DNA of 64,000 bases. It comes from a phage. The stretch lies in the sequence record PZ019084.1. One strand, written 5' to 3'. This document shows, piece after piece, positions 1,384-58,609 of the stretch. Below the pieces are notes generated by a model that saw only the letters and a list, made by a program, of their open reading frames with translations, was not told the origin of the DNA and did no database searches. The stretch's first letter is position 1; each line of letters begins with the position of its first letter. The position numbers and the translations under genes are program-made.

Positions 1384-1670
1384 TAGAACCTCATCTGAAA
1401 ACCGTGCGATTTAACATTACCGCCGCCAATATCAGAAATGTTAATTTCACGCGCAATTGAAGGGTCAATGTCAATTTCACGATTGAGTTTAGTGATAGCT
1501 AAAGTATCGCGGCCATTTACAATACGGAACTCTAAAGGGCAGACTACATTAACATAGTTTTTAATCGATTCACTAGTAGGCTGCAAATGAGCAGGAAGGT
1601 CTTTAGGTGCCTTAGAGAAAACCACTTCACAGAAATTTTTGCGGGTATCAAAATAAGTAGTCATAAACAT
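1383..1670 (-). CDS. hypothetical early protein
   Basis: 95-aa ORF in the same early array. Confidence 0.5.
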   Translation of the reverse strand: MFMTTYFDTRKNFCEVVFSKAPKDLPAHLQPTSESIKNYVNVVCPLEFRIVNGRDTLAITKLNREIDIDPSIAREINISDIGGGNVKSHGFQMRF

Positions 1671-1711
1671 AGTATTTTCCTCAGTAAGGGGCCGAAGCCC
1701 CTCATTTTATT

Positions 1712-2147: not shown

Positions 2148-2516
2148 TTATGCAACTTTAATCCAATTATCTAAATTTAATTCACCTTTGGCTTTCATTT
2201 TTTCAATCAAGAGGTCAGCGGTAATACGACCATTTTGATACCACGTAACATCTTCAGAGTAACCAGTTTCTTTATCTTCATAAGTCTCACAGCGAATTTT
2301 ACCAAGAATCAAAGTTTTTAATTCGTATGTATCTCCAGTAAAAAAGTTAGTTAACATTATTTTCCAAGAGAAATCATCAGAAGGACCTTCAGGAGTCATA
2401 CAATCTACGAATTCAAATTGTTCTTTATATAAATGCCACTGAAGTTCTTTAGTTTCGATAGCTTTATAGCCGTCGTGATCTTTACCTTTGATGTATGAGT
2501 TAAGATTGATTTTCAT
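2148..2516 (-). CDS. hypothetical early protein
   Basis: 122-aa ORF preceded by an early promoter (2544..2573) and an AAGGAG Shine-Dalgarno. Confidence 0.55.
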   Translation of the reverse strand: MKINLNSYIKGKDHDGYKAIETKELQWHLYKEQFEFVDCMTPEGPSDDFSWKIMLTNFFTGDTYELKTLILGKIRCETYEDKETGYSEDVTWYQNGRITADLLIEKMKAKGELNLDNWIKVA

Positions 2517-2543
2517 TTTATTCTCCTTTGTTTGTGTAAGATA

Positions 2544-2573
2544 ATACTATCACAAAGGAACCATACTGTAAAC
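2544..2573 (-). promoter_or_regulatory. T4-type early promoter (-35 GTTTAC, 18-nt spacer, -10 TAGTAT)
   Basis: Minus strand reads GTTTAC..N18..TAGTAT immediately upstream of the 2516 start. Confidence 0.6.
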
Positions 2574-2593
2574 AACTTTGTGCAATCTTTGGA

Positions 2594-2625
2594 AAATAAA
2601 AAAAAAAGGACTCCCGAAGGAGTCC
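2594..2625 (-). terminator. rho-independent terminator (GGACUCC-CGAA-GGAGUCC hairpin plus U-run)
   Basis: Perfect 7-bp stem with CGAA loop followed on the minus strand by a run of about 10 U; located just after the stop of ORF 2631..2849. Confidence 0.7.
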
Positions 2626-2630
2626 TCAAC

Positions 2631-2849
2631 TTATGCTTTCTGCTTACCAAAACGAGAAGCATCATCTCGAAGAACCGCACGTGCTCGACGCATGATCTTC
2701 TCAACAGTTTGATTGATACGAGAGTTCGACCCACGCTTGTAGCCAGCGCGTTTAGAATCACCAACTTTCTTTTCAACTGCTTTCTTTGCTTTAACTTGTT
2801 TTGCCATTATAAATTCTCTTTTAAATGAAAATGCAGGACTTATTGGCAT
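2631..2849 (-). CDS. small lysine/arginine-rich basic protein (alternative start at 2807 gives 58 aa)
   Basis: 72-aa ORF, highly basic (MAKQVKAKKAVEKKVGDSKRAGYKRG...), terminator directly downstream. Confidence 0.5.
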   Translation of the reverse strand: MPISPAFSFKREFIMAKQVKAKKAVEKKVGDSKRAGYKRGSNSRINQTVEKIMRRARAVLRDDASRFGKQKA

Positions 2850-3203
2850 TGCCTGCGCAAGCCCTCAAGGGGAACATAGGTTTTGGATATTTAACGACAG
2901 GATAACCATAAACCCGTCATCATACCTTATAGCTCTTATCTGTTGCACACCGTTAGCTTAAAGGTTCCGGGTCCGATTTCTCGAGGATAAGATATATACT
3001 GATGGATATATAGGCCTTGAGGCGTACTCCCGATTGGCCATCACCTCGGGGTAGCATGCACTTGCCGCTATAAGAATAACATTCAAGAGGTACACCGTAA
3101 AACTGCCGGGGTCTTAAAACTATAATGATTCGCAAATCATTAATCAGACAGTTCGACGGCTCCTCGTTTTAACTTCACACTAAGGCAGTGACTCTCCAAT
3201 AAA

Positions 3204-3452
3204 TTACTTCAGTGTTACCACAAAGTGACGAACTGCTTTTCGTGCGGCAGAAGCCAAAGGCTTAGCATATTTAAGTTCATCTTTTTCCTGAAGCTCAGCA
3301 GCTAATGCAGTTTGAGCGGGATTCAGATGTTTGAAATAACGCAGGATTTCAAGAGCTTCGGCTTCAACATCAATAGATGCGCCATAGTTTTCGTGACCAT
3401 TATTCCATGCGTTTCGTTGCAGTTCAAGAGCGTGTTGTAATTGTTTAATCAT
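3204..3452 (-). CDS. rIII: rIII lysis-inhibition accessory protein
   Basis: 82 aa; sequence MIKQLQHALELQRNAWNNGHENYG... matches T4 rIII from memory, and sits next to gene 31 as in T4. Confidence 0.85.
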   Translation of the reverse strand: MIKQLQHALELQRNAWNNGHENYGASIDVEAEALEILRYFKHLNPAQTALAAELQEKDELKYAKPLASAARKAVRHFVVTLK

Positions 3453-32880: not shown

Positions 32881-32911
32881 TTTTGAATAAATATCCTTAA
32901 AAGGAGGGTCT

Positions 32912-33568
32912 ATGGCAGCACCTAGAATATCATTTTCGCCCTCTGATATTCTGTTGGGTGTTCTAGATCGCTTATTCAAAGATAACGCTACCGGGAAGGT
33001 TCTTGCTTCCCGAGTAGCTGTCGTAATTCTTTTATTTATGATGGCGATTGTTTGGTATAGGGGAGATAGTTTCTTTGAGTACTATAAGCAATCAAAGTAT
33101 GAAACATACAGTGAAATTATTGAAAAGGAAAGAAACGCACGCTTTGAATCTGTCGCCCTGGAACAACTCCAGATAGTTCACATATCATCTGAGGCAGACT
33201 TTAGTGCGGTGTATTCTTTCCGCCCTAAAAACTTAAACTATTTTGTTGATATTATAGCATATGAAGGAAAATTACCTTCAACAATAAGTGAAAAATCACT
33301 TGGAGGATATCCTGTTGATAAAACTATGGATGAATATACAGTTCATTTAAATGGACGTCATTATTATTCCAACTCAAAATTTGCTTTTTTACCAACTAAA
33401 AAGCCTACTCCCGAAATAAATTACATGTACAGTTGTCCATATTTTAATTTGGATAACATCTATGCTGGAACAATAACCATGTACTGGTATAGAAATGATC
33501 ATATAAGTAATGACCGCCTTGAATCAATATGTTCTCAGGCGGCCAGAATATTAGGAAGGGCTAAATAA
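32912..33568 (+). CDS. t: holin T
   Basis: 218 aa; MAAPRISFSPSDILLGVLDRLFKDN... with a single transmembrane segment, matching T4 T. Confidence 0.9.
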   Translation: MAAPRISFSPSDILLGVLDRLFKDNATGKVLASRVAVVILLFMMAIVWYRGDSFFEYYKQSKYETYSEIIEKERNARFESVALEQLQIVHISSEADFSAVYSFRPKNLNYFVDIIAYEGKLPSTISEKSLGGYPVDKTMDEYTVHLNGRHYYSNSKFAFLPTKKPTPEINYMYSCPYFNLDNIYAGTITMYWYRNDHISNDRLESICSQAARILGRAK

Positions 33569-56415: not shown

Positions 56416-56423
56416 TATTTATA
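56416..56423 (-). promoter_or_regulatory. late promoter TATAAATA for soc
   Basis: Exact TATAAATA on the minus strand about 30 nt upstream of the soc ATG. Confidence 0.7.
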
Positions 56424-56593: not shown

Positions 56594-56794
56594 TCATTTT
56601 GAATGCTCTATAATTAATTTTAAGGCTTCTTCACTGACAAAAATTTCATCAAGACCTTCTTCTACACCCCAATCAACCACACGAAGCTGATTAGATAAGA
56701 GCTCACATACGAGCTCCTTGTCATAATTTTTAAATAGCTGGTCAATACGTTTCTTGTGGGCTTTCTTAAGTTGTCGTTTATTTAAACGAGCCAT
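56594..56794 (-). CDS. hypothetical protein
   Basis: 66-aa ORF. Confidence 0.45.
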   Translation of the reverse strand: MARLNKRQLKKAHKKRIDQLFKNYDKELVCELLSNQLRVVDWGVEEGLDEIFVSEEALKLIIEHSK

Positions 56795-57312
56795 TAATAA
56801 CCTCGGTCTTGGCGAGCGAAGTTTTCAGCATTTTTCAGATAATAAAGTTTAAAGATTTCTTCAGCCGTAAGACCGAGACCTTGGAACATGTTCAGAACGA
56901 AATGAAGAATATCAATCATTTCGAATTTAATTTCCAACTGGTCTTGTGGAGACAAATCAGTAATTAAAGTTTCACGACGTTCACCATGTTGAGCTTTCCA
57001 TGGCTTCCATACAGCAGATGCATCTTTTTCACCATTGCTCATACCACCAAGAGAAGTCAGAAGTTCGCGGAATTCATCATCAATATAATCTTTTTGATTA
57101 CGCAGCCAATCAACAACTTCGCCTGCAGTAGCCAAATCATCAGGATGACGGTTATATTCAGGTTTATCTTTAGCTAAACGAACCTGCAGAGATTTCTGCA
57201 TATCAAGCATAACCTGCAGCGGGTCTTTTTCATCACCGAGAATATCCCAGTATTCATTTTGAGCTTTATCAGCGCCTTCAATCAGTTGTGAACATTCATT
57301 AAAGTATGCCAT
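56794..57312 (-). CDS. 56: dCTPase/dUTPase (gp56)
   Basis: 172 aa from MAYFNECSQLIEGADKAQNEYWDILGD, matching T4 gp56; the ORF track adds 31 codons upstream. Confidence 0.85.
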   Translation of the reverse strand: MAYFNECSQLIEGADKAQNEYWDILGDEKDPLQVMLDMQKSLQVRLAKDKPEYNRHPDDLATAGEVVDWLRNQKDYIDDEFRELLTSLGGMSNGEKDASAVWKPWKAQHGERRETLITDLSPQDQLEIKFEMIDILHFVLNMFQGLGLTAEEIFKLYYLKNAENFARQDRGY

Positions 57313-57383
57313 TATTTTTCCTTTCAATTCATGGGTTAGTAGATTAATTATACAATAAATATATAAAGCAATAAGGAGGACAT

Positions 57384-57584
57384 ATGGTACAAAAATTAAT
57401 GGCACTTGTTAATGCCATAAAAGGTAATAAAAAACGTATAGCTTTTACTATTTCTGCTATGGTAGGAATTTTACTCTGGAATTTTGTTTTATCGCCAATT
57501 GCTATTGCTCATGGTGTTAATATTCCAGTAATTACTCTTGATACATTCGTAGATTTAGCATTTGCTTTAGTTGGGTTAATTTAA
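57384..57584 (+). CDS. small hydrophobic protein on the opposite strand between genes 56 and 61
   Basis: 66-aa ORF with a strong AAGGAGG Shine-Dalgarno 4 to 5 nt before the ATG; predicted transmembrane segments. Uncertain. Confidence 0.4.
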   Translation: MVQKLMALVNAIKGNKKRIAFTISAMVGILLWNFVLSPIAIAHGVNIPVITLDTFVDLAFALVGLI

Positions 57585-58609
57585 ATCTTAGCATATTTAG
57601 ATAGCCGCATTTTAGCCATCAACCCTTGGGCAATATTATTTTTCATATATTCCATAATTTGTTCAGGGGTTGCACCTTCCTTTCTAATCATATCATTAAC
57701 ATCTTTTGATTTCCAGGGAGATTTGTCCCAAAACATAACCCTTTCTCCTGCATCAACCAATTTAGTCATTCGTTTAATAGTGTCAGGGTGACGAGGTTCA
57801 TTATCTAAAACCCACACACGTCTATCTTTAAATGGAACAATTTCTAGGTCTAATTGACCACCCGTAATAGCTATACCATTTTCAATAAAAAGTGAATCTA
57901 TAGGTCCTTCTAGAACATATACATCACCATCTTTGACTCGTTCAACTCCATAGATTTTTGTTGCCTCAGGATAAGCTTTGATGGTGATATATTTTTGAGG
58001 AGCATCTTTCTTTAATGCACGTCCTTGAAAAGACTCAGCTTTTCCATTAGCATTATAAATTGGAATAACAAGACGAGGCTCAGGTATTTCCTTTTTATAT
58101 GTTCCTGGCGCTATACTATTAACTAATTTAGGCCATTCGGTTGTAAACCAAAGATATTTCCATTTATCCTTTGGAATACAACGAGCTTTTACGTATTTTA
58201 TAATTGGATGGTCTTCCGTCAGTTTATCTAATCTAATGCATGACGGAAGAGATTTAATTATTTTCTTCTCAGGTTGTTTAGGAAGTTCTTTAGGTTTTTC
58301 TACTGGACGACTTTTACCTTTTTCTTTTCTTATTTCAAAGATATACTCACGATATAAATCAGGTTCAAACTCCTTTAAATATATTCCGATTGGTGCATGA
58401 TAGTTGCAGTTATAACAATGAATATTTCCTTCATTATTATCACCATAATACCATCCACGGGCTTTATTTTGGTCGGTTTTTGAATCTCCACAAACGGGGC
58501 ATCTAAACCGTAATTTAAAAGTTGAACTATTATTTACTTGTGCGAATTTAGGTAAATGAGCCAATGCACGGTATGCAAACTCATTATCAATCCAAGGTAT
58601 TGATGACAT
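57581..58609 (-). CDS. 61: gp61 DNA primase
   Basis: 342 aa, same as T4 gp61; N-terminal zinc ribbon (CPVCGDSK...CYNC) and a TOPRIM region. Confidence 0.9.
   Translation of the reverse strand: MSSIPWIDNEFAYRALAHLPKFAQVNNSSTFKLRFRCPVCGDSKTDQNKARGWYYGDNNEGNIHCYNCNYHAPIGIYLKEFEPDLYREYIFEIRKEKGKSRPVEKPKELPKQPEKKIIKSLPSCIRLDKLTEDHPIIKYVKARCIPKDKWKYLWFTTEWPKLVNSIAPGTYKKEIPEPRLVIPIYNANGKAESFQGRALKKDAPQKYITIKAYPEATKIYGVERVKDGDVYVLEGPIDSLFIENGIAITGGQLDLEIVPFKDRRVWVLDNEPRHPDTIKRMTKLVDAGERVMFWDKSPWKSKDVNDMIRKEGATPEQIMEYMKNNIAQGLMAKMRLSKYAKI

Follow-up and report, generated by a model that had tools for sequence, protein, structure and literature searches.

The window analysed here is a stretch of 64,000 nucleotides of phage DNA (record PZ019084.1). 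Between genes 56 and 61, which are both on the minus strand, it carries a small open reading frame (ORF) on the plus strand (Table 1), the 66-aa product of which is MVQKLMALVNAIKGNKKRIAFTISAMVGILLWNFVLSPIAIAHGVNIPVITLDTFVDLAFALVGLI. The stop codons of the ORF and of gene 61 overlap by 4 nt in the sequence TTAA, and the same TTAA overlap with gene 61 was observed in T4T, ST0, VR25, JS98 and F48. The minus strand corresponds to the early and middle genes, with soc, soc.2, 61.1, 61.2, sp, dmd and gene 41 located around genes 56 and 61, and the plus strand of the window is the "late" strand. The 2 kb around the ORF showed 97–99% identity to many Tequatrovirus genomes, such as those of the Salmonella phage pSe_SNUABM_01, of ime09 and of the Shigella phage vB_SsoM_113.

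A sequence-only reading of the locus had described a hydrophobic plus-strand ORF of 66 aa with a strong AAGGAGG, directed against the minus-strand early genes and preceded by a late-promoter-like sequence, with a MotA box and a TATAAT for gene 56 in the same interval. All these elements were recovered at the locus: the ORF is hydrophobic (GRAVY 1.25) and opposite in strand to genes 56 and 61, AATAAATA lies upstream of it, and TTGCTTTA, 11 nt and TATAAT follow one another on the minus strand. Position 57313, used in that reading, is the first base past the gene 56 start codon; the ORF itself begins at 57384.

Table 1. Coordinates of the features discussed in the text (positions in the window).
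Feature	Position	Strand	Basis and remarks
Holin gene t	32912..33568	+	PF11031, E 2e-117; T4-type holin T
Late motif AATAAATA ahead of holin gene t	32886..32893	+	Same variant as before the 66-aa ORF
Late promoter of soc, canonical TATAAATA	56416..56423	-	Reverse complement; 31 nt before the soc ATG at 56384
Gene 56 (dCTPase/dUTPase)	56794..57312	-	phrog_173, E 1e-46, and annotation of relatives; divergent neighbour of the ORF
MotA-type middle promoter of gene 56	57347..57371	-	Sequence; laid out as in T4
Putative gp55-type late promoter AATAAATA, A(-13) variant	57354..57361	+	Motif comparison; start predicted near 57367
Shine-Dalgarno AAGGAGG	57373..57379	+	Read from the sequence; 4 nt upstream of the ORF ATG
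Small membrane-protein gene (the ORF)	57384..57584	+	ORF listing and phrog_2024 match; 201 nt, 66 aa, ATG start
Terminator-like hairpin, ATGGCATTAACAAGTGCCAT then TAATTTTTGT	57389..57418	-	Terminator scan; downstream of gene 61, in ORF codons 2–12
Gene 61 (DNA primase)	57581..58609	-	phrog_47, E 8e-107, and annotation of relatives; convergent neighbour of the ORF

Conservation of the 66-codon gene

The ORF is not new: it is already present in databases as a hypothetical protein of phrog_2024, a family labelled as of unknown function. The match to this profile was full-length (E 5.4e-31, residues 2–66 against profile positions 1–65 of 65), and the protein is 100% identical to annotated hypothetical proteins in close relatives. 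The same gene is named RB32ORF030w in RB14 and vB_SsoM_113, RB69ORF029w in RB69 and dam.1 in T4T; no mention of the names dam.1, RB32ORF030w and ORF029w was found in literature searches. T4T dam.1 (HM137666, 17724..17924) is a 66-aa member of the family on the same strand and at the same site. T4 carries the ORF with 94–95.5% amino-acid identity; in its record NC_000866 (94%), the ORF falls within an unannotated gap of 309 bp between dam and gene 61.

The annotation of the family is uneven. In extracted loci, the unannotated ORF was located at 3239..3439 in T4 NC_000866, 1501..1701 in JS98, 1501..1701 in F48 and 1501..1710 in IME523. Other family members bear conflicting labels: those of CGG4-1 and SEA1 are called "dCTP pyrophosphatase", that of SAKp28 is called "DNA packaging ATPase", a UniRef entry (OE5505) reads "Holin", and the T2 member (AP018813) is a "putative head morphogenesis protein". 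These four labels were taken as annotation noise, as they are mutually inconsistent and have no support from profiles or context.

Comparison across relatives indicates that the ORF is a genuine conserved gene. Matches were obtained by tblastn in 693 phage records, covering at least 80% of the ORF length in 687, and the surrounding 2 kb was matched in about the same number of records (695). Conservation in close relatives, named in the sequence-only reading as a check on the ORF, held: it is kept among Tequatrovirus members with 94–100% identity. At greater distance, the homologues fell into two subfamilies. Those of the first (A) showed 48–54% identity and were found in Mosigvirus and Gaprivervirus. 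Those of the second (B), with 18–30% identity, were found in Gaprivervirus, Dhakavirus, Marfavirus, Mosugukvirus, Gelderlandvirus and Kanagawavirus, where the phages examined were JS98 (Dhakavirus), F48 (Marfavirus), PM2 (Mosugukvirus), CGG4-1 (Gelderlandvirus) and IME523 (Kanagawavirus). Both subfamilies matched phrog_2024, with E-values from 1e-24 to 1e-31. Position and orientation, on the same strand and adjoining the 3' end of gene 61, are kept in at least eight genera of T4-like phages. The Gaprivervirus VR25 carries both subfamilies in tandem (2495..2692 and 2701..2901 of the extracted locus, 23% mutual identity), and the Gaprivervirus copy A showed relaxed constraint (dN/dS 0.34–0.73).

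The pattern of substitutions was that of a coding sequence. In 11 lineages, reaching as low as 18% identity, stops were absent from frame +1 and present in each of the other five frames, and the sole length difference seen was an in-frame deletion of three codons (P0025). The dN/dS ratios were 0.09–0.5 in Tequatrovirus, mostly 0.1–0.3, and 0.11–0.21 in Mosigvirus, values computed from small counts (2–22 substitutions per pair) and from pairs that are not independent. Variable sites were distributed over the three codon positions as 10/2/11 in Tequatrovirus and 6/1/14 in Mosigvirus, the second positions being nearly invariant in both. In an alignment of 45 sequences, W32, N33 and P38 were invariant and A40, G44 and P48 were at least 90% conserved; the protein of the window possesses all five residues of the family core, W32-N33 ... 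P38 ... G44 ... P48.

The family has a narrow distribution: when 1.84 billion representative proteins were searched with a profile, six matches were returned, all of them family members. The search of a second database gave 112 proteins of 41–74 aa, mostly 65–69 aa; about two-fifths were on contigs of 95–195 kb, and all those with a named source came from T4-like phages. Seven loci were found in a scan of IMG/VR, all of kinds already seen. The family profile detected no paralogue among the other ORFs of the window, no Pfam or NCBIfam family was assigned to five family members at E-values up to 1, and a profile search of the PDB sequences was empty. Structure comparison with BFVD and PDB returned nothing beyond family members and generic membrane helices, with PDB E-values above 2.

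Signals upstream of the gene and the gene 56 junction

The motif nATAAATA was present 16–22 nt upstream of the ATG in every lineage compared. At least five unrelated upstream contexts were distinguished, all of which retain nATAAATA and a strong ribosome-binding site (GGAG(G)). The form of the motif was AATAAATA in this window, in Mosigvirus and in JS98, GATAAATA in T4, the T2 type and PM2, CATAAATA in Gaprivervirus and the canonical TATAAATA in F48 and IME523; a weaker form with two mismatches, ATTAAATA, was seen in CGG4-1 (Gelderlandvirus). The T4/T2 type keeps the motif even though its homology to the window ends at approximately 57372/57373, just 5' of the ribosome-binding site. Compared to the late consensus TATAAATA (-13 to -6), AATAAATA matches at seven of the eight positions. 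At -13, T4, T2, PM2 and VR25 have G or C. Among 50 late promoters listed for T4, 32 are perfect and nine have an A at -13, which is the commonest variant (PMC2988020), and the -13 position is poorly conserved in relatives (PMC1524935).

The sequence ATAAATA is rare in the window, with 15 sites on both strands compared to 36.4 +/- 5.8 in shuffled sequences, a scarcity that looks like selection against stray late promoters. The sites include 22496+, 27563+, 32887+, 56416- and 57355+. Four of the seven plus-strand copies are located 15–30 nt ahead of a ribosome-binding site and an ATG; they precede two ORFs starting with MAEIKRKF and MADLKVGS, the holin gene t and the 66-aa ORF.

Because nATAAATA is kept in every lineage and the same variant precedes holin t, we infer that transcription is gp55-dependent and late, and that it would start near the site given in Table 1. 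A published list of RB69 late promoters obtained with an HMM (31 sites) contains none upstream of RB69ORF029w. A promoter scan found no plus-strand promoter of the sigma-70 type ahead of the ORF, and a terminator scan found no plus-strand terminator after it, the next terminator-like site being at 58207..58220, so that the RNA would extend into gene 61 as antisense. The leader ATAAATATTAATTTAA(A/C)AGGAGGATA is nearly identical in T4 (3210..3238) and JS98 (1465..1500, both in the extracted loci), despite the fact that the proteins of T4 (subfamily A) and JS98 (subfamily B) share just 18–23% identity, approximately. Either conservation has been stronger upstream, in the promoter and leader, than in the coding sequence, or this upstream part was exchanged by recombination.

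On the opposite strand, gene 56 has a MotA box, TTGCTTTA (57364..57371 read on the minus strand), and, past a spacer of 11 nt, a TATAAT (57347..57352 read on the minus strand); from this TATAAT to the start codon of gene 56 (ATG at 57312) there are 34 nt. This corresponds to the MotA pattern, (a/t)(a/t)TGCTT(t/c)A near -30, 11–13 nt, and a TAnnnT -10. Gene 56 of T4 has TTGCTTA, 13 nt and TATAAT at an equal distance (34 nt) from the ATG, a middle promoter is predicted at the equivalent RB69 site (Pm:16038, score 21.6), and the annotators of fPS-2 predicted one at the same sequence. The late motif lies in the spacer of the gene 56 promoter, and signals of two temporal classes would thus stand back to back within 25 bp.

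The terminator-like hairpin has a stem of 8 bp with three G-C pairs at 57399..57418 and a T-rich tail, UAAUUUUUGU, extending to 57389. Its fold energy is -8.9 kcal/mol (z -2.4), and it is an annotated terminator in fPS-2. It is placed to act on RNA coming out of gene 61 and may terminate it or attenuate its read-through into gene 56. It was found in Tequatrovirus alone, and no comparable hairpin was present in Mosigvirus, Gaprivervirus, Dhakavirus and Marfavirus. The hairpin was considered as a reason for the conservation of the ORF and was rejected, being a genus-level addition absent from four other genera. An Rfam scan of 57000..57900 gave chance-level matches and no family.

The sequence-only reading had also supposed that in T4 this interval carries gene 69/oriA and dam, and that the replication-origin architecture may differ here. 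As regards dam, the supposition was correct. T4 carries the same ORF too, and the T4 records place oriA within gene 56, at its 5' end, with the transcript of this gene as the primer. "Gene 69" we take to be a former name of the segF region, which flanks gene 56 on its other side, between this gene and soc. The origin oriA has been linked to a nearby MotA-dependent promoter (PMC3016281). Judging from the sequence, the MotA-type promoter and the 5' end of gene 56, which are linked to oriA in T4, are conserved in the window. A changed origin architecture was not supported, as the T4-like layout of the gene 56 promoter is kept and dam alone is missing. Since T4 also carries the ORF, the latter does not replace the T4 arrangement.

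The junction without dam was observed in 294 of 504 related records (about 58%) and is the commoner arrangement. Between gene 56 and the ORF, T4 has dam, and T2, SV76 and G3G7 have dam together with a gene of approximately 181–186 aa, whereas a homing endonuclease occupies this place in fPS-2 and a MazG-like gene in F48 and IME523. Such differing occupants at one point, or none, mark the site at about 57372/57373, just 5' of the ORF ribosome-binding site, as an insertion hotspot by sequence comparison. All that sets the region apart from T4 is that the dispensable dam insertion is missing.

Predicted protein and proposed explanation

The hydropathy profile showed one clear membrane span at approximately 19–42 and a second hydrophobic stretch, 47–66, which holds D53 and D57; the Kyte-Doolittle maxima over 19 residues were 2.0 (residues 23–41) and 1.87 (residues 47–66). 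The protein has five Lys/Arg, four of them at positions 13–18, and no basic residue past R18. Its C-terminus, ...DLAFALVGLI, is hydrophobic. Nolan et al. predicted a single transmembrane span, 21–41, for RB69ORF029w. The AlphaFold2 model, built with the 45-sequence alignment, has helices at 2–11, 15–42 and 52–63 (pLDDT 79, pTM 0.57). The product is predicted to be an inner-membrane protein with its N-terminus inside, an orientation suggested by the basic N-terminus. The C-terminal segment may be either a second transmembrane helix or an interfacial helix. We favour a periplasmic or interfacial C-terminus because the C-terminal helix has approximately 12 residues and some members of subfamily B have variable hydrophilic tails.

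We consider it probable that the ORF is a true gene of the T4 group, transcribed late and translated, with an inner-membrane product for which an accessory late role is guessed. In this explanation, the gp55-RNA polymerase would transcribe the ORF late in infection from AATAAATA, giving an mRNA with a short leader (about 17 nt) and a strong ribosome-binding site, and the transcript would run on antisense into gene 61. The basic amphipathic N-terminus would stay in the cytoplasm. The one transmembrane helix would bear the invariant W32-N33 and P38, with the near-invariant G44...P48 turn next to it, and the short C-terminal hydrophobic helix with its acidic residues would be placed at or beyond the periplasmic face. 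As a guess drawn purely from size, hydrophobicity and inferred timing, the protein could act late as an accessory membrane protein (envelope, lysis timing or membrane-associated assembly) via helix-helix contacts.

The plus-strand frame would be open by chance if the interval were a minus-strand untranslated spacer holding the gene 61 terminator and the gene 56 middle promoter. The terminator-like hairpin does lie inside the ORF with the middle promoter after it, and the T4, JS98, F48 and IME523 records leave the ORF unannotated. Chance is difficult to reconcile, however, with one frame kept open in 11 lineages while the five others carry stops, with dN/dS well below 1, invariant residues and a conserved ribosome-binding site; in addition, the hairpin was not found beyond Tequatrovirus and no Rfam family was matched. 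We regard the spacer as an extremely improbable explanation. An alternative that accepts selection on the plus strand is that selection acts mainly on an antisense RNA, made late and reaching into gene 61, which would lower the primase mRNA, the peptide being secondary. The convergent overlap with gene 61 is conserved, no plus-strand terminator separates the two genes, and T4 late transcripts are of either polarity, some sites being transcribed on both strands (PMC2988020). Conservation at the protein level, an in-frame indel and a strong ribosome-binding site would be needless for an antisense RNA, and the tandem second copy in VR25 shifts the first copy away from gene 61. A mainly antisense function is improbable in our view; an antisense role could coexist with the coding role.

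Two further alternatives accept the gene and concern its function and its timing. The protein could be holin- or pinholin-like, a two-helix membrane hairpin making inner-membrane lesions: it is like class II holins in its size, in having two hydrophobic segments and in its N-in topology, its expression is probably late, and one UniRef entry labels a family member as a holin, but this label is one among inconsistent ones and the predicted C-terminal helix is merely 12 residues or so. A holin role is unlikely because no holin profile of Pfam or NCBIfam was matched, the C-terminus is hydrophobic and uncharged, the neighbours are dCTPase and primase genes with no endolysin or spanin gene adjoining, and a T4-type holin T is present elsewhere in the window; its probability is rated as very low. 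The gene could also be real but owe its transcription to a host-type promoter, active in the early or middle period. The TATA-like element (ATAAAT or TACAAT) could serve as a sigma-70 -10, and some lineages have G or C at -13; against this, the scan gave no sigma-70-type promoter on the plus strand before the ORF, and no -35-like element is common to the five differing upstream contexts. Such early or middle expression appears very improbable.

The late membrane-protein explanation has a stronger form, in which the ORF would encode a late membrane protein of T4 and all its enterobacterial relatives, overlooked for want of an annotation in the T4 reference, with a definite late role, its read-through RNA being perhaps antisense to primase. 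This form is possible, and rather doubtful. If true, the role could lie, for example, in the timing or inhibition of lysis, in keeping the envelope intact or in head assembly attached to the membrane. The evidence supports annotating the ORF as a probable late membrane protein. The gene is ordinary for its genome family, and its modest interest lies in its omission from the T4 reference and in the absence of a functional study: T4 is the reference model of the group, yet its reference record omits a conserved gene, as do other records, and a knockout of this small gene could expose a missing player in late membrane events.

Comparison with known systems

The pinholin S21 of phage 21 is a late protein of about 65–70 aa with two hydrophobic segments and a basic N-terminus. 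The ORF product is similar to such class II holins in these respects, its late expression being probable. It differs from them in having no sequence or profile similarity and no charged tail, and its gene is located outside a lysis cassette in a genome that possesses holin T. The T4 proteins Imm, Sp and RI, involved in superinfection exclusion or acting as antiholin, are likewise envelope proteins of less than 100 aa, and sp is approximately 2 kb away from the ORF; they differ by the absence of detectable similarity, and sp is on the minus strand. Imm and Sp are products of early genes.

The soc gene, approximately 1 kb away, is small and late, and has a promoter of the TATAAATA type although early and middle genes surround it; the ORF, with its putative late promoter, would resemble it in these respects. 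By contrast, soc runs on the minus strand in the same direction as its neighbours and encodes a soluble capsid decoration protein, whereas the ORF is on the opposite strand and its product is hydrophobic. The late promoter of soc directly follows the stop codon of an upstream soc.1-like ORF. With T4T Dam.1, RB32ORF030w and RB69ORF029w, the ORF shares length, strand, a site convergent with gene 61, and nATAAATA with a ribosome-binding site. In T4 and T2, dam, or dam and another gene, separates this gene from 56, whereas in the window it abuts the gene 56 promoter and the two promoters, one of them putative, overlap.
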